The position numbers and the translations under genes are program-made. Below, piece by piece: positions 8,644 to 21,388 of a stretch of DNA of 45,983 bases; position 1 is the stretch's first letter; every line of letters starts with the position of its first letter. The notes under the pieces were generated by a model. It did not search any database. It saw only the letters and a program-made list of their open reading frames with translations, and was not told where the DNA came from. The DNA is from a virus. The stretch lies in IMG/VR virus record IMGVR_UViG_3300044980_000021, positions 1-45,983 of that record; one strand, 5' to 3'.

Positions 8644-9182
8644 CCCTGACCTCCTCCGTTCATCTTCGCCGCGGCTAGCCTGGTAGCGTCCTGACCAATA
8701 GACAAAATACCACTCAACCACGGAGGCATCTGATTCGCCGTCTGCAAGTCCTTAGCCTGCACCTCACCCTCTCCAGTCTGCGCGTTGGCAGCCATGCCGT
8801 AGAGCCTGGAAAGGTCGCCGGAAGCGGTGTTCTGCTGATTAAGTTTCACATCGGCATTGTTGGCTGCAATCTTCTCGCCAACCATCGCATTTCCCTTATC
8901 GGCAGATCGCGCGGCGGCGTCTAAGGCCCCAGAGAATCCCATCGGATTACGGGTATCCATACCCATTTTCCCTGCTGCTCCGGTAAGACCTGCGGTAGCG
9001 CCTCCGGTTCCTGCAAGCCCCTGAGTGATTTGCGCACCGATATCGCGCTGGCTCATGCCGGTGGGGTTGGTCATCTGGCGAGTCAAAAAGGGGATTACAT
9101 TCGATCCGATGCCGCCAGCCGTAGCGCCATAAGCGCCAGCCGCGGAGCCCGCTGTATTGGCTGCTGCCTGCGAGTCTCTCAT
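8640..9182 (-). CDS. Gly/Ala-rich internal virion protein candidate, 180 aa
   Basis: ATGA overlap with the upstream HNH gene stop. AAANTAGSAAGAYGATAGGIG-type low-complexity N-terminus. First of the three-gene ejection-protein-like set. Confidence 0.6.
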   Translation of the reverse strand: MRDSQAAANTAGSAAGAYGATAGGIGSNVIPFLTRQMTNPTGMSQRDIGAQITQGLAGTGGATAGLTGAAGKMGMDTRNPMGFSGALDAAARSADKGNAMVGEKIAANNADVKLNQQNTASGDLSRLYGMAANAQTGEGEVQAKDLQTANQMPPWLSGILSIGQDATRLAAAKMNGGGQG

Positions 9183-9658
9183 TGCACCCTCGCAAATTCA
9201 CCATGAAGAGCCTTTGCGGCGGCGCCATAGGCATCCGCGGCCTCCTCTAGTGAATTAAAAAGTCCTAAATCATAACGCTTCTTGTCTTTATGGATCATGG
9301 CTCGATATTTGCCGTCTGCATGGATATGCACGCCCTTGACTCCAAGCCGATTATTTTTATGTGCTCCCCTATTGCACTTATTTTGCGAGCTGCTAGCAAT
9401 CCTTAAATTATGGCGCTGATTGTCCAGTCCGTTTTCAGATCGATGCTCTCCTTCTCGCTTATCCCCGAAAGCGAGACCCAATATCTCCCTGTGCATATAG
9501 TGCGCAAAGGTTTTTCCATACTGATAGGTGAATCTGACAGCATAAAACCGATTTGATCGGTTGCTTTTGTATGCCGTCCATTCAAATTTATTGAGAACAT
9601 CGAAATCGCAGTCATCTACCAGTGCGATCTTTCCGTTTTTTAGGGAAATCTCACGCAT
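9179..9658 (-). CDS. HNH-AP2 homing endonuclease, 159 aa
   Basis: HNH core HREILG...GEHRSENGLDNQRHNLRIASSSQNKCN, then an AP2-type DNA-binding domain GVKGVHIHADGKYRAMIHKDKKRYDLGLFNSLEEAADAYGAAAKALHGEFA. Start set to ATG 9658 (MREISLKNG), which overlaps the GNAT gene stop by 8 nt. Confidence 0.85.
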   Translation of the reverse strand: MREISLKNGKIALVDDCDFDVLNKFEWTAYKSNRSNRFYAVRFTYQYGKTFAHYMHREILGLAFGDKREGEHRSENGLDNQRHNLRIASSSQNKCNRGAHKNNRLGVKGVHIHADGKYRAMIHKDKKRYDLGLFNSLEEAADAYGAAAKALHGEFARVQ

Positions 9659-10049
9659 GAGTCGATATGCTCCACGGATGCCACCCGCTGCGGTTTGGCG
9701 TCCATCCAAGTTGAGCTAGGCGCTTCTGGAAGCGTCGTTCGATGGTCTCAGGGATTCGAGCTTCAATGTCATCTAAACCATTCTGCCACGCCGCGCGCAA
9801 AACCTCTGGCTGCATCAGGTTCATTGCATCCATCTTACAACGAGGCGATAATTCAGGCGCAAGCCATAAATATGTTTCCGCACAGATTCTCAGAAAGCAT
9901 GCCCCCACGACCTCACCGCCATTTTCAACAACCTTGCGAACGAAGAATAAGGGATGCCCTAACTCTGGAAGCCGATAGTCAGACCCCATAGCCTCGTGGA
10001 TTCCTGCGATCCTCGAAAAATCGCTCGAATCTGCATCTCTGACTATCAT
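9651..10049 (-). CDS. GNAT-like N-acetyltransferase-fold protein, 132 aa
   Basis: Size and pattern (IVRDADSSDFSRIAGIHEA...FFVRKVVENGGEVVGACFL...ETYLWL) resemble small GNAT proteins. The canonical Q/RxxGxG/A motif is not obvious. ATGA overlap with the upstream gene. Confidence 0.5.
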   Translation of the reverse strand: MIVRDADSSDFSRIAGIHEAMGSDYRLPELGHPLFFVRKVVENGGEVVGACFLRICAETYLWLAPELSPRCKMDAMNLMQPEVLRAAWQNGLDDIEARIPETIERRFQKRLAQLGWTPNRSGWHPWSISTHA

Positions 10050-17373: not shown

Positions 17374-18177
17374 TTACGCTGCGTCAGCGGCTGGGCGACC
17401 CGGCCCGCGACGAAAGCGGTCTGGAAATAGTCTCCTTGCCTTCTCTTCATCCAAAACAGCATCGCAATGACGGCACACCGCAGCCGAAGCAGAAATAAGC
17501 TCTTCGCAGTTGGGGCAATTCGCGGTTGCGCCAGCCTTCGCGCCTTTCGGAATCAAATCGCTGCGATGCCACGAATGCGAAGTTTCAAAGTAGTTCGCCG
17601 CGGCATGGGAGATATTGTTGGCGCGTGCCTGGGCTTCCGCAGTCCCGCCTGGGCCAGATTCGATCTTCGACATCTCCGCGAGTTCGGCTTTGAACGTCTT
17701 GACAAGCCTGTTGCGCGCCGCATCCAGCTCTTCCTGAGTCGGCGGGTTGTTCACGCTCCAGAAGACGCCGAAATTGTTGAGATTTCCGCCCACATTGAGC
17801 GGGTTGAATTCCTCGAAATTCTGATCCGTTCCAGGATTGGCCGGGGAAAGCATCTTCGTCGCTTCCTTGAAGCCATTCGTGAACCGAACCAGCAGATTGC
17901 CATTCTCATCGCGGTAGTTCTCGGAAAACGGATGATTGATTGCATTGCAGAGGACATATTCCTTAGCCAGAGGGCATGGCTTAATCCACATATGCGGATG
18001 ATTCGGGTAGCGCGGCTCGTTGAATTCCAGCGGGCTGACGTTGTAAATGTAGATCGGCGTCACAGCCGGAGAAAAGCTGTCCTGAATCTCTGCGATCGCA
18101 TTGGGGAAATAGGCTTCGTTGCGTTTGTGGGCCTGCGCGCTGGCTACGTCTGGGCGTTCGATTACGTTGTCTGCCAT
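17374..18177 (-). CDS. Virion morphogenesis protein with C-terminal CxxC...CxxC zinc ribbon, 267 aa
   Basis: Overlaps the upstream gene's stop codon by 1 nt. Contains CPNCEELISASAAVCRHC near the C-terminus. The antisense 237-aa ORF is Arg-rich and was rejected. Confidence 0.65.
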   Translation of the reverse strand: MADNVIERPDVASAQAHKRNEAYFPNAIAEIQDSFSPAVTPIYIYNVSPLEFNEPRYPNHPHMWIKPCPLAKEYVLCNAINHPFSENYRDENGNLLVRFTNGFKEATKMLSPANPGTDQNFEEFNPLNVGGNLNNFGVFWSVNNPPTQEELDAARNRLVKTFKAELAEMSKIESGPGGTAEAQARANNISHAAANYFETSHSWHRSDLIPKGAKAGATANCPNCEELISASAAVCRHCDAVLDEEKARRLFPDRFRRGPGRPAADAA

Positions 18178-18911
18178 TAGTTTGGTCTCCTGAGCTGGTT
18201 TTGGGCCTGGAAACGGCGATTCCTCGCCATCATCGTTACCAGGCCAACGTTGAAGTGCCTTTCCATCGAGCGCATCTTGTCTTCAAGCCATGAAGTTGAG
18301 GCCAGAGACGCCTTGCGCTTGACGCCGTGGTAAATATCGTCTACGCGTTTGCCGAATTCGATATCGTCCTTCTCTTCGCACTCTTTCATGAATCGCATCT
18401 TGCATTCGAGCGACAATTCCAGCGATGCCTTGATGATCGGAACCATCATTTCCACAATTTCCGTCGAAAGCGGGAAGGCTTCGATGTAAAGCTGGCCCTT
18501 GTCGAAGATTTTGGCTACCAGCGGAAGAGCAATCTGGTAGGAACCGTGATACGGATACTCGCCGAGTATCTGAAGTCCTGTTTTTGCGCAGCGATTCTCC
18601 TGATAGAACCATTCTGCCGACTGTGGCTGGATATGCGGCATTTCAATCGACATTCCGGCATCCACCCACTGCATCAGCATCCAGTGCGGCAGGCCATCGC
18701 CCTTGTACACCTCGCGGTAGCCTACGAACATAGTCTCGGAGTCGCCGTCATAGGGAAATTCCCCGCCCTGCCGAGTCGTCTCCGCTTGTGCCCATGCCAG
18801 TTTGAAGCGAGGCTTCCTGTAGCGATTCAATCCGCCGACCTGCGTAATGCGCCTCTGGAAGTTATCGGGCGCATGGAGGCGCTCTGGATGGGCGCTATAT
18901 GCCGACTGCAT
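18177..18911 (-). CDS. Head-module protein, unknown function, 244 aa
   Basis: Start overlaps the 3' end of the GroES-like gene by 17 nt. No motif recognised. Confidence 0.6.
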   Translation of the reverse strand: MQSAYSAHPERLHAPDNFQRRITQVGGLNRYRKPRFKLAWAQAETTRQGGEFPYDGDSETMFVGYREVYKGDGLPHWMLMQWVDAGMSIEMPHIQPQSAEWFYQENRCAKTGLQILGEYPYHGSYQIALPLVAKIFDKGQLYIEAFPLSTEIVEMMVPIIKASLELSLECKMRFMKECEEKDDIEFGKRVDDIYHGVKRKASLASTSWLEDKMRSMERHFNVGLVTMMARNRRFQAQNQLRRPN

Positions 18912-19362
18912 GGCTCACTCCAAGCGCAAAGCTGACTTTTTCGATGAGCTTGAGGTCGAAGACGCTGCAAAGCGTAAACACTTCGCCATCGCAGTCAATG
19001 TCCTCCGTATTGAAAGCAGAGAATGTGACCACATCGCCGGGCTTGACCACATTTACCATCGGAAAGGACTGACCTTCGATGATGTAAAAATCCGCGCAAG
19101 CGACCACAACCCCGCGATTGGCTGACTTCTGCGCCGATTCAGGGATGACAAAATGTGTTCCGCCCCAGGTTGTCTCTTTGGCATTGCGGCGAATCAGAAC
19201 GCGGTCGAAGATTGGAACCGGATCAGAATAAATGCGGTCAACTTCCGCAAGGCTGATTGGCTCAACAAGAGCATCGATCTCGTTTTCAGGCGGTTGTGGC
19301 TCTGCGGACTCATCGGCGGCCTTGGTACGCCGGTCCACTATCTCAAAAGGTTCGTGTCTCAT
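18895..19362 (-). CDS. GroES/Cpn10-like co-chaperonin with ~50-aa acidic N-terminal extension, 155 aa
   Basis: PIFDRVLIRRNAKETTWGGTHFVIPESAQKSANRGVVVA...VVKPGDVVTF...GEVFTLCSVFDLKLIEK aligns by eye with the whole length of bacterial GroES. ATGA overlap with the GIY-YIG gene stop. Confidence 0.7.
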   Translation of the reverse strand: MRHEPFEIVDRRTKAADESAEPQPPENEIDALVEPISLAEVDRIYSDPVPIFDRVLIRRNAKETTWGGTHFVIPESAQKSANRGVVVACADFYIIEGQSFPMVNVVKPGDVVTFSAFNTEDIDCDGEVFTLCSVFDLKLIEKVSFALGVSHAVGI

Positions 19363-19970
19363 TCTGGTCTCCTGTACGGTCCGCGTTTAACGCCTGTGCG
19401 GGTCTGCGCTGATTTCAGTTGCATGGCCGAACCCGATTGCATATCCGGCCTCTTGCGTCCTAGCTTACCATTACGAATTGCTTGCCGGTATTCTTCTGAT
19501 CTTGGCGGCTTAGGTCTTCCCCTCAGAGCTGCTGATTGTTTAGCTATCTGCTCTGGTGCTTTTTTCCTGCCACGATTTCCTGCTGCGATATTAGCGTTCC
19601 ATTCTGGTGGGTTAGGTCCGCGCTTCTTGCCTAGTTTTGCGGCTGCCATCTTTGCTTTTGCTTCTTCGGAATGACTACCACCCTTGAATCTCTTCTCCCC
19701 TCCATCGGTTCGATTCGCTAAGCATCCAGTCCCCCTGTCGATCCTTCCTAAAAGATGGATCTGAAGCATTTCAATCTGTAGGGCATCTTTCTCGCTCAAA
19801 TCCTGAGCGATGAATTCAATTAGCGACTCATCGCTCGGAGGATGTACGTGGTGATCTCTAGACCATGCTCTTTTTCCGCATCCTTTTCCTACGTAAAAAG
19901 CAGTTCCCGATACTCCATATCTCGAATTTGATGAGCGGAGGTAACGATAAACATAGAATTTTTTGTCCAT
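19359..19970 (-). CDS. GIY-YIG homing endonuclease with NUMOD3-type repeats, 203 aa
   Basis: N-terminal FYVYRYLR...AFYVGKGCGKR GIY-YIG motif. Four basic helix repeats follow (SEEAKAKMAAAKLGKK, EWNANIAAGNRGRK, EQIAKQSAALRGRPK, EEYRQAIRNGKLGRKR). Free-standing between the capsid and GroES-like genes. Confidence 0.85.
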   Translation of the reverse strand: MDKKFYVYRYLRSSNSRYGVSGTAFYVGKGCGKRAWSRDHHVHPPSDESLIEFIAQDLSEKDALQIEMLQIHLLGRIDRGTGCLANRTDGGEKRFKGGSHSEEAKAKMAAAKLGKKRGPNPPEWNANIAAGNRGRKKAPEQIAKQSAALRGRPKPPRSEEYRQAIRNGKLGRKRPDMQSGSAMQLKSAQTRTGVKRGPYRRPE

Positions 19971-19976
19971 GCAATC

Positions 19977-20005
19977 ATTTTACATCCGCTCACTGGAAAT
20001 TTCAA
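19977..20005 (-). promoter_or_regulatory. Sigma70-like promoter of the GIY-YIG gene, leaderless geometry
   Basis: On the minus strand: TTGAAA (20005..20000), 17 nt, TAAAAT (19982..19977), 6 nt, ATG 19970. There is no SD. Confidence 0.45.
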
Positions 20006-20053
20006 CAACTTAAATCTGTCTTACGCTAATAATGAGCAACAGGTTTGTTTTCA

Positions 20054-21388
20054 TCAAATTGTAGGCTGAGAGGCACCATACACATAGAGCTGATGACGCG
20101 GTGCACTACAGGCAAGATTGAAACTGCACTCATAGGCGAACTGGTTTGAGGTCAGCCATCCGTTTCCGGAGGGGTCTGGGACTGGCATGGTGGTATTTCC
20201 GCCTCCGAAATCGTACAGTTGCAGCGGGCAGAGTTCCCCGATGTACCAATCCGAGGTCAGAAGCATATCCACGCGGCCCAGCGGCTGAACGTAGGACAGA
20301 TGAACGTCCCTGCCGCCATAGGTGCCTTGGAAATACTTCTTGCTCACATCCGGCACTTTCCCAGTGCTGCCTTCGCTGTTCGACTGCTGCAGGACGATCT
20401 GCTTGTTGTAGTAGTTCGTCTGCGCAACCGCGTAGCTCTGGTCTTCACCGAAAAGGTAGATGCCAGAGTCTTTGGTCTTGTTAGATCCGCCCATTGCCCT
20501 ACCCAACAGAGCCTCGATGCGCGCCGATAGCGAAGCGGTAATGCTGCCGCCGTTCAGGTTGATCGAGGGAGTTGAAATACGGCTGGGATAGGTTGCCCGG
20601 TTGATGCCAGCCTGGATGCCAGTTGTCGCCGAGTTGTTCCACGAGGTTGTGCCGAAAACGCCCTCACCATAAGCGCCGGAAGAGCCGGCAATCATGATGT
20701 AGTCGCCTGCAGCAGTCGCCCCGCCTGTCGAGGGCAGGACAGTAGAGAAGAACAACGTCGAAGTGACCGGATCGTTGATCGAGATGGTGGCATTGCCGCG
20801 AGTGCTTCCACCCTCGGACGGGAAAATCTGTACTACCTGATTGTCCGTGAAGGCCATCGCCCGAACGCCGGTAATGAAGCTGGTCTGATTACCAGTGCCG
20901 GAGTTCGAGGAAACGGTAGCTGTCGAGGGAATCTGCGTGATGGCTCCCGAAGAGTCACCGTACATGATGCCTTCAATGCCTGCCATCGCCGAATCGAGCG
21001 AGTTCTTCAGTTCCTCAGCTTTGAGAGAGATGAGACCGCGCTTCTTGCCGTTTACGGCGAGCTGCGAGAGGTGCGTCATCTCGTTCACGGCATAGTGCCA
21101 AATCGGGGAAAGATTGAAATCATTCCAGATCGACATATTGCCGCGGCCAAGAGCATTGCCGTCGCCGGTTCCCTGCGAGATGTAAGCGCCGCCCTGCACG
21201 CGGAAAGGAACGCGGAAGGATGGGCGGGTGGTTGTGCCTGCTGTCGTCTGGAAGGAGACCGGAACCTTAGTGAAGCGGTCCTGCGCCAGCGCGTACAGCG
21301 TCTTGCTCATGGGGATGAGCGATGGGATTTCGGTGCTAAAGGCTTCGATTTCAACCGCTTCTACGGCTGCTTCTGTGCCGAGTGCCAT
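20054..21388 (-). CDS. Major capsid protein (by position and size), 444 aa
   Basis: Follows the scaffold-like gene. GGAG SD. Size and composition are compatible with an HK97-fold capsid protein carrying an insertion domain. No search was possible. Confidence 0.65.
   Translation of the reverse strand: MALGTEAAVEAVEIEAFSTEIPSLIPMSKTLYALAQDRFTKVPVSFQTTAGTTTRPSFRVPFRVQGGAYISQGTGDGNALGRGNMSIWNDFNLSPIWHYAVNEMTHLSQLAVNGKKRGLISLKAEELKNSLDSAMAGIEGIMYGDSSGAITQIPSTATVSSNSGTGNQTSFITGVRAMAFTDNQVVQIFPSEGGSTRGNATISINDPVTSTLFFSTVLPSTGGATAAGDYIMIAGSSGAYGEGVFGTTSWNNSATTGIQAGINRATYPSRISTPSINLNGGSITASLSARIEALLGRAMGGSNKTKDSGIYLFGEDQSYAVAQTNYYNKQIVLQQSNSEGSTGKVPDVSKKYFQGTYGGRDVHLSYVQPLGRVDMLLTSDWYIGELCPLQLYDFGGGNTTMPVPDPSGNGWLTSNQFAYECSFNLACSAPRHQLYVYGASQPTI

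Follow-up and report, generated by a model that had tools for sequence, protein, structure and literature searches.

Why should a phage of about 46 kb carry a GroES-like gene among its capsid genes, and what would the product be for? Phage-encoded GroES lids are a textbook case of viruses re-tooling a host machine, and to our knowledge only T4 gp31 and RB49 CocO have been studied functionally among them. The question is raised here by the genome of an uncultured soil phage, which is complete in its IMG/VR record and has direct repeats at its termini (IMGVR_UViG_3300044980_000021, positions 1 to 45,983; this whole stretch of 45,983 nucleotides is called the window below). We report that the open reading frame (ORF) at positions 18895-19362 encodes a genuine Cpn10/GroES homologue and consider it likely that this co-chaperonin is made with the late head genes and acts as a GroES-like lid on host GroEL, with the major capsid protein as its probable principal client.

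Identity and fold of the co-chaperonin

The gene and the parts of its product that are referred to in this section are as follows.

18895..19362, minus strand: phage Cpn10/GroES-like co-chaperonin gene, 155 aa with ATG start; matches in Pfam, the PDB and, via an AlphaFold2 (AF2) model, Foldseek
18937..19215, minus strand: Cpn10 beta-barrel core, codons 50-142; Pfam match over 50-136, predicted local distance difference test (pLDDT) score ~90, all-beta secondary structure, Foldseek matches
19117..19185, minus strand: mobile-loop equivalent, codons 60-82 (NAKETTWGGTHFVIPESAQKSAN), with the hydrophobic tripeptide F71-V72-I73 at 19144-19152
18895..18936, minus strand: C-terminal tail (F-A-x-G), codons 143-155 and stop; its last 17 nt are shared with the following gene, whose ATG is at 18911

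As the preliminary description had proposed from the sequence alone, the ORF, which lies exactly at these positions on the minus strand, codes for a GroES/Cpn10 homologue; the plus strand of 18895-19362 is not open but closed by a stop. A profile search aligned residues 50-136 with positions 4-88 of the 93 positions of the Pfam family Cpn10 (PF00166) at 44.1 bits (E 2e-11), well above the gathering cut-off of 21.1, and the whole-genome Pfam scan returned Cpn10 at 44.9 bits. The 155-aa protein also matched PHROG 3188, "co-chaperonin GroES". When all PDB sequences were searched with phmmer, only Cpn10 chains were found, headed by Thermus GroES (4v4o_O, E 2.9e-9), and the alignment to this protein spanned the DRV start, the GG/hydrophobic mobile loop and the VKxGD motif. 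The segments by which the similarity had been recognized by eye (PIFDRVLIRR, NVVKPGDVVTF and GEVFTLCSVFDLKLIEK) are all present in the ORF.

The fold agreed with this assignment. An AF2 monomer model, predicted from an alignment of 21 homologues, had a pLDDT of ~90 over residues 50-147 and of ~50 over residues 1-49, and its ordered part is the expected GroES beta-barrel: the best 34 Foldseek matches in the PDB were all GroES/Cpn10, with target-normalised template modelling scores (TM-scores) of 0.6-0.76 to GroES chains. The best matches among the viral structure models of BFVD were annotated as viral GroES.

The strongest argument from the sequence is the mobile loop, the GroEL-contacting part, in which the hydrophobic tripeptide and the proline are retained in a form close to the host type. 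The stretch G67-G68-T-H-F71-V72-I73-P74 aligns to the GG-IVL/III mobile loops of the GroES proteins of Thermus, E. coli and the Terracidiphilus host (see below), and the window loop ETTWGGTHFVIPESAQKS is close to the host-type loop ETVRGG-IIIPDSAKEK with which it was aligned. I73 and P74 are invariant in the 21 homologues. The roof beta-hairpin is present as well: residues ~88-105 align to the GroES roof with a length difference of 2 residues, and the predicted roof strands are E92-95 and E98-101. The roof region varies between sub-clades.

In spite of these similarities, the NCBIfam GroES models, including the PRK00364 equivalogs, gave at best 40.1 bits, far under their equivalog and subfamily cut-offs of 96-215; judged by its sequence, the protein is a divergent paralogue and not an orthologue of the housekeeping GroES. 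An assignment to the T4 gp31-type co-chaperonins was rejected in view of the clear GroES similarity and the near-normal loop and roof, and the gp31 family was not among the Pfam or PHROG scan matches.

Linkage and co-divergence with the capsid gene

The co-chaperonin gene is flanked by the following genes.

20054..21388, minus strand: major capsid protein gene, 444 aa, HK97 fold by AF2 model and Foldseek; likely client
19359..19970, minus strand: free-standing GIY-YIG/NUMOD3 homing endonuclease gene, by NUMOD3 and homing-endonuclease PHROG matches
18177..18911, minus strand: conserved 244-aa gene downstream of the Cpn10 gene, its position kept in all relatives read

The 444-aa protein has more than 695 homologues and matched no Pfam or PHROG family. 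The best 50 of the 201 Foldseek matches of its AF2 model (E<=0.001) were all capsid proteins of phages, gene transfer agents (GTA) or phage-inducible chromosomal islands (PICI), and the HK97-fold matches include SU10 and A-1(L). Because of these matches to HK97-fold capsid proteins we regard it as the major capsid protein. The HK97 fold of this protein and the NUMOD3 and PHROG matches of the intervening gene bear out the earlier reading that the co-chaperonin gene follows the capsid gene with only a homing-endonuclease gene between them.

When 50,697 GenBank phage records were searched by tblastn with the 155-aa protein, nothing was found at E<=1e-3. As this co-chaperonin sub-family is thus absent from isolated phages, the comparison was based on metagenomic relatives, among which 20 homologues of the co-chaperonin with 47-65% identity were found, mostly on 40-47-kb contigs. 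Six relatives share a constant gene order of small terminase, large terminase, ~830-aa protein, histidine phosphatase, ~425-aa protein, capsid protein (~444 aa) and Cpn10, followed by genes of ~240, 267 and 274 aa. The window also codes for a putative scaffold protein of 424 aa. No gene lies between capsid and Cpn10 genes in L001/L002, L004, L005, L006 and L027, and an Endonuclease_7 gene is located there in L003.

The linkage was followed across the clade in 80 IMG/VR loci with capsid homologues of 40-80% identity, plus the earlier loci, with a hidden Markov model (HMM) of the Cpn10 core and a GroEL query. This set comprised 75 distinct capsid proteins, 51 of which had at least 2 kb of downstream sequence. 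A same-strand ORF with a Cpn10 domain was present within 2 kb downstream of the capsid gene in 44 of these 51 loci, and within 300 nt in 26. Pairwise identities of the capsid proteins rise and fall with those of the Cpn10 cores (Spearman 0.65; in a Mantel test, 0 of 2000 permutations gave a value as high as that of the data). For pairs with 85-100% capsid identity, the mean identity of the Cpn10 core is 74%, and for pairs with 45-55% it is 31%; the lid evolves faster than the capsid protein.

The nearest relative of the window capsid protein is 93% identical to it, and the adjoining lids of the same genome pair share only 65% identity. The capsid protein is unusually conserved in this group, and the motif E-x-A-V-E-x-V/I-E of its N-arm is near-invariant.

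In three sister lineages (L028, L058 and L059) a full-length GroEL gene follows just after the Cpn10 gene. The GroEL of L028 matched PDB GroEL sequences with E 1e-143, and its gene is followed by one for a 234-aa homologue (34% identity) of the window 244-aa protein. As GroEL sits in this interval and the 244-aa homologue follows, the interval from the capsid gene to the 244-aa gene is a chaperonin slot across the phage group. The proposed tie to the capsid gene is thus supported by the 44 of 51 loci, by the co-divergence and by the GroEL genes in the same slot of some relatives. We found no description in the literature of such a strict, co-diverging capsid-lid(-ring) slot in an Acidobacteria-linked group.

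The three GroEL-carrying lineages (L028:6439-8658, and likewise L058 and L059) are ~45-kb sister phages with capsid proteins of 48-54% identity and GroEL proteins of 528-564 aa; in L028 an uncharacterised ORF of 104 aa lies between the lid and GroEL genes. The Cpn10 gene behind the capsid gene of L026 (L026:7047-7377) appears split over two frames in a long-read assembly, which is probably an assembly frameshift and not a pseudogene.

The acidic N-terminal extension

Upstream of the core, the following two elements are of interest.

19216..19362, minus strand: acidic disordered N-terminal extension, codons 1-49, outside the Pfam domain, pLDDT ~50, no GroES counterpart
19327..19344, minus strand: conserved short linear motif E-I-V-D-R-R, codons 7-12, with D10 and R12 invariant

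An acidic N-terminal extension of ~50 residues without counterpart in GroES had been noted before, and we could confirm it: residues 1-49 lie outside the domain, are predicted to be disordered and have a net charge of -8. The extension is acidic in all 21 family members, with net charges of -2 to -9. D10 and R12 are invariant in the 21 homologues within the motif M-E-[IV]-x-D-R-R, the linker behind the motif varies in length and sequence, and a second block, A-E-V-D-R-V-Y-x-D-P-x-P-I, leads into the core. By this pattern of conservation, the extension is translated and constrained. Docking peptides are usually built in this way, with a short conserved motif carried by a variable acidic linker, which suggests such a role for the extension.

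In a wider comparison the pattern [ILVMT]-x-D-[RKNSHL]-[RK] was searched in the 42 capsid-linked Cpn10 ORFs with at least 12 residues of extension. It was found upstream of the core in 26 of them, compared to 1.9+-1.3 in composition-preserving shuffles (maximum 7 in 1000). Long Cpn10 forms of 240-260 aa keep the motif ~30 residues before the core and add a second N-terminal motif, G-D-x-L-A-x-G-x-x-S-A-x-F; Pfam scans of these forms revealed no additional domain. A profile search of 1.84 billion representative proteins retrieved 4688 Cpn10 relatives, and since the alignment already starts at the N-terminal motif in roughly 35 of the top 150 representatives, the extended architecture is that of a family and not a one-off. 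Both N-terminal motifs are essentially confined to the Cpn10 proteins of the examined loci. The idea that the motif is a general capsid-targeting tag shared with other phage proteins was rejected, the few non-Cpn10 matches being probably spurious ORFs. We found no literature describing an N-terminally extended phage GroES or chaperonins of Acidobacteria phages, and the conserved N-terminal motif architecture likewise was not found described.

The long forms (L061:7312-8055, L086:8078-8857, L093:9532-10308, L069:9702-10433 and similar) start with GGDxLARGxxSAQFxxGG, followed by an optional segment of ~35 aa (DFExD...KYGLS...Y) and then by the [IV]xDRR motif. In these forms the mobile loop, too, is extended, by ~10 residues, which recalls T4 gp31.

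By eye, I-x-D-R-R looks like the first core strand P-I-x-D-R-V-L-I, a likeness without statistical support. Extensions, whether short or long, showed no profile similarity to the Cpn10 core in hhalign (probability 0.1-0.2%). A tandem, Cpn20-type architecture, in which the extension would be a degenerate second Cpn10 domain, was rejected on the basis of this result and of the single Pfam Cpn10 stretch. The termini of GroES are located at the subunit interface on the outer rim; with this arrangement, the arms would project outward and not line the cavity.

Of the lids encoded next to a GroEL gene, those of L028 and L059 have no extension and that of L058 has a short, degenerate one. This loss in phages with their own GroEL hints, from three loci only, at a link between the extension and dealing with host GroEL. 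A search for further GroELs of this clade returned only generic viral GroELs with at most 46% identity.

Host and lifestyle

Among the GTDB species genomes, this Cpn10 occurs only in a metagenome-assembled genome (MAG) of Terracidiphilus (Acidobacteriota), in which the phage lies inside a 390-kb contig (L010 / G001:C16). Two further members of the phage group (L001 and L002) are integrated in metagenome contigs of 150-230 kb. Because a group member is integrated in the Terracidiphilus genome and others lie in long contigs, we assign the group to Acidobacteriota and to a temperate lifestyle; the host of the window phage is probably an acidobacterium. As is typical of temperate phages, the window has genes for a DnaB helicase, a YqaJ exonuclease and an Erf protein. 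The only pointers to the label "podovirus-like" are the Sf6-type small terminase in relatives and the lack of recognisable tail-tube or tape-measure matches. Besides the phage copy, the Terracidiphilus MAG has one canonical groES-groEL operon, and the window protein is 35% identical to its GroES over 85 residues.

Proposed function and alternative explanations

The strongest genomic arguments for a phage lid on host GroEL are the linkage to the capsid gene, the co-divergence and the GroEL genes in the same slot of sister lineages. According to the reading that we favour, the divergent GroES paralogue would be transcribed together with the late head genes, would assemble into a GroES-like lid and would then, most likely, cap host GroEL via the mobile loop G67-G68...F71-V72-I73-P74. 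The phage would thereby have a lid of its own, in supply or in properties, at a time when a 47-kDa HK97-fold capsid protein has to be folded in very large amounts. This protein would be the most probable principal client, a choice based on the analogy with T4 gp31/gp23 and RB49 CocO; T4 gp31 and RB49 CocO are needed together with GroEL for capsid protein folding (cited in PMC5649160). The earlier prediction of an obligate dependence of the capsid protein on GroEL is plausible as a conjecture. The 49-residue acidic disordered tail with E-[IV]-x-D-R-R would most likely be a tethered peptide, present seven times in each lid, for docking to a partner that might be either GroEL itself, where it would help to out-compete host GroES, or the capsid protein.

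Several points weigh against this reading. The protein is not an orthologue of cellular GroES, since its NCBIfam score is far below every equivalog and subfamily cut-off. A client of 47 kDa fits the ordinary GroEL/GroES cage, which leaves the need for a phage-specific lid unexplained. Other phage processes depend on GroEL, such as lambda portal assembly and the T5 tail, and the client could therefore be another head protein, e.g., the 244-aa protein. The presence of the motif did not correlate with the sequence of the capsid N-arm, which is near-invariant in all lineages. Finally, what the data show is the homology, the fold, the conserved loop and motif, the synteny, the co-divergence and a host with a single groES-groEL operon; heptamer formation, GroEL binding, the identity of the client and the role of the tail are inferred.

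A more far-reaching proposal is that of a tethered class of phage co-chaperonins, defined by E-[IV]-x-D-R-R and, in the longer forms, also by G-D-x-L-A-x-G-x-x-S-A-x-F. In this class seven acidic arms with docking peptides would clamp the lid on host GroEL, or would capture nascent capsid protein and hand it to the cage. We regard this proposal as speculative and, on present knowledge, rather doubtful.

An alternative is that the Cpn10 fold has been repurposed as a GroEL-independent head-assembly factor (an assembly chaperone, a scaffold accessory or a decoration-like protein) that binds the capsid protein via the N-terminal motif. The slot directly after the capsid gene with its conserved coupling to head genes would fit such a factor, as would the N-terminal motifs that are absent from cellular GroES, the faster evolution of the co-chaperonin compared to the capsid protein and the score far below the GroES equivalog cut-offs. 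However, the part best conserved with respect to cellular GroES is precisely the GroEL-binding mobile loop with its hydrophobic tripeptide, a real GroEL occupies the same slot in relatives, and we know of no sevenfold structural component in tailed-phage heads. We therefore consider a role independent of GroEL unlikely. Improbable too, in our judgement, is a host-takeover or counter-defence factor without one dedicated client, that is, a lid that, helped by its acidic tails and motif, ties up or re-programmes the GroEL of the host or poisons the host's GroES rings, so that folding capacity is diverted or chaperone-linked defences are blunted. Chaperone-linked toxin-antitoxin defences that sense capsid protein are reported to exist. 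The functional-looking groES-groEL operon of the host, which makes a second lid not obviously necessary, speaks for this explanation, and so does the resemblance of I-x-D-R-R to P-I-x-D-R-V, the strand that opens the core and makes up the interface between subunits in GroES. The late-operon placement, the tight capsid linkage and the co-divergence, on the other hand, favour a morphogenetic role, and hhalign found no significant similarity between extension and core.

That the gene is a recently captured host groES, either an auxiliary stress gene without a tie to the capsid or a non-functional relic, is very hard to reconcile with the data, although the capture of host chaperonin genes by phages is known (Marine et al. 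2017, PMC5649160). A recent capture was rejected because the protein shares no more than 35% identity with GroES from the one host-type genome that was identified; moreover, the gene is conserved across capsid proteins down to ~43% identity, with which it co-diverges, and the 21 homologues have an uninterrupted frame and invariant residues. A phage lid for host GroEL that serves chiefly the capsid protein thus remains the explanation that we prefer.

Genes around the co-chaperonin gene

In the window, the TGA stop of the homing endonuclease gene overlaps the ATG of the Cpn10 gene as ATGA. The endonuclease gene has a GC content of 0.485, compared to 0.53-0.57 in its neighbours, and in the alignment it stands in place of a spacer of ~50 nt; it is absent from the junction in L001, L004, L005, L006 and L027. 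A scan for promoters and terminators around the Cpn10 gene gave counts at or below chance, the only notable match being a promoter-like site before the endonuclease gene.

Free-standing homing endonucleases have inserted repeatedly at the capsid-Cpn10 junction, and they belong to two unrelated kinds, Endonuclease_7/HNH-type and GIY-YIG/NUMOD3. Gaps of more than 250 nt between the two genes usually hold such a gene, and most other relatives have a spacer of ~50-60 nt. Endonuclease_7 was found in seven loci and NUMOD3 in the window and in L035:

window 19359-20053: NUMOD3
L035:6399-7073: NUMOD3
L003:9451-10014: Endonuclease_7
L022:5479-5970: Endonuclease_7
L045:6384-6884: Endonuclease_7
L058:6444-7280: Endonuclease_7
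L064:6466-7167: Endonuclease_7
L080:6735-7223: Endonuclease_7
L081:6618-7118: Endonuclease_7

A second free-standing HNH endonuclease gene lies within the tail/late gene block of the window (9179-9709, minus strand; PHROG 99, E 2e-31). In L005 (L005:1-1883) the gene at the large-terminase position codes for 846 aa with an Intein_splicing match (PF14890), suggesting an intein-interrupted terminase.

On its other side the Cpn10 gene overlaps the 244-aa gene, to which it is apparently translationally coupled; the same 3' overlap of 14-17 nt is kept in the relatives L001, L003, L004 and L006. The 244-aa protein matched no Pfam, PHROG or NCBIfam family and is probably a head or neck protein.

Comparison with known systems

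A GroES homologue in a genome of ~46 kb had been called unusual in the preliminary description. This claim is not supported, because it is well established that phages can have a GroES gene and no GroEL partner: one virome contained 976 GroES-only viral contigs, often with a head gene nearby, and GroES or gp31 was found in 165 of 2178 phage genomes (Marine et al. 2017, PMC5649160). With E. coli GroES as the query, tblastn retrieved 123 GenBank phage records, mostly of jumbo phages, and these include Shewanella phage 1/44 (49.6 kb) and Vibrio phage 1.049.O (45 kb), in which the GroES gene lies inside the structural module. BFVD holds dozens of viral GroES models, and the genome-map legend for CRP-901-type roseophages labels a GroES gene. 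A GroES gene in a 46-kb phage is thus in itself no surprise.

What the window phage and its relatives offer is a compact natural system in which capsid, lid and, in sister lineages, ring gene share one slot and co-diverge over a wide range, and in which the lid bears a conserved short motif on a disordered arm that is absent from cellular GroES. Should the motif prove to dock GroEL or the capsid protein, this would represent a new way of biasing a general chaperonin to one client and also a handle for expressing difficult HK97-fold capsid proteins; the tethered class, if true, would be a case of a general chaperonin turned into a client-dedicated capsid-folding machine. In addition, an Acidobacteria-linked temperate phage group would join those that use the phage-lid strategy.

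T4 gp31 cannot be recognized as a GroES relative by its sequence, its mobile loop is longer and the roof hairpin is missing, so that the cage is enlarged for the 56-kDa gp23. The window protein resembles it in its proposed function, that of a phage-made lid which works with host GroEL in the service of the major capsid protein. In contrast to gp31, it is clearly a Cpn10 by sequence, its loop is 1-2 residues longer than that of GroES, its roof has normal length and its client would be of 47 kDa. Closer counterparts are RB49 CocO and the GroES-only virioplankton genes (PMC5649160), which are likewise phage-encoded without a phage GroEL, recognizable as GroES by sequence, equipped with the mobile-loop glycine and hydrophobic tripeptide, located near a head gene and proposed to serve capsid folding on host GroEL. 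The window family differs from these by its acidic disordered extension of 30-80 aa with E-[IV]-x-D-R-R and by its short C-terminal tail. It also differs from the marine GroES-only set in that the gene directly follows the capsid gene, whereas a kinesin-like gene comes after GroES in the marine set (PMC5649160), and in its origin from soil and from Acidobacteria-linked, temperate phages of ~45 kb.

The GroES proteins of mid-sized siphoviruses (Shewanella phage 1/44, Vibrio phage 1.049.O) are comparable insofar as they are encoded among virion genes of ~45-50-kb phages, but they have ~100 aa without an extension, are encoded between tail-completion and major-tail genes and are 19-22% identical to the window protein. 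With cellular GroES (Thermus 4v4o/1wnr, E. coli 1aon and the Terracidiphilus host) the window protein shares the fold, the mobile loop, VKxGD and the overall length of the core, whereas it is only 30-35% identical, scores under the NCBIfam cut-offs, has extra N- and C-terminal tails and is encoded outside a groES-groEL operon. The viral GroES>GroEL and GroEL>GroES operons (PMC5649160; many IMG/VR contigs) have their equivalent in the sister lineages L028, L058 and L059, with Cpn10 and GroEL after the capsid gene; the window phage, in contrast, has the lid only, and this lid carries the extension that those of L028 and L059 lack.

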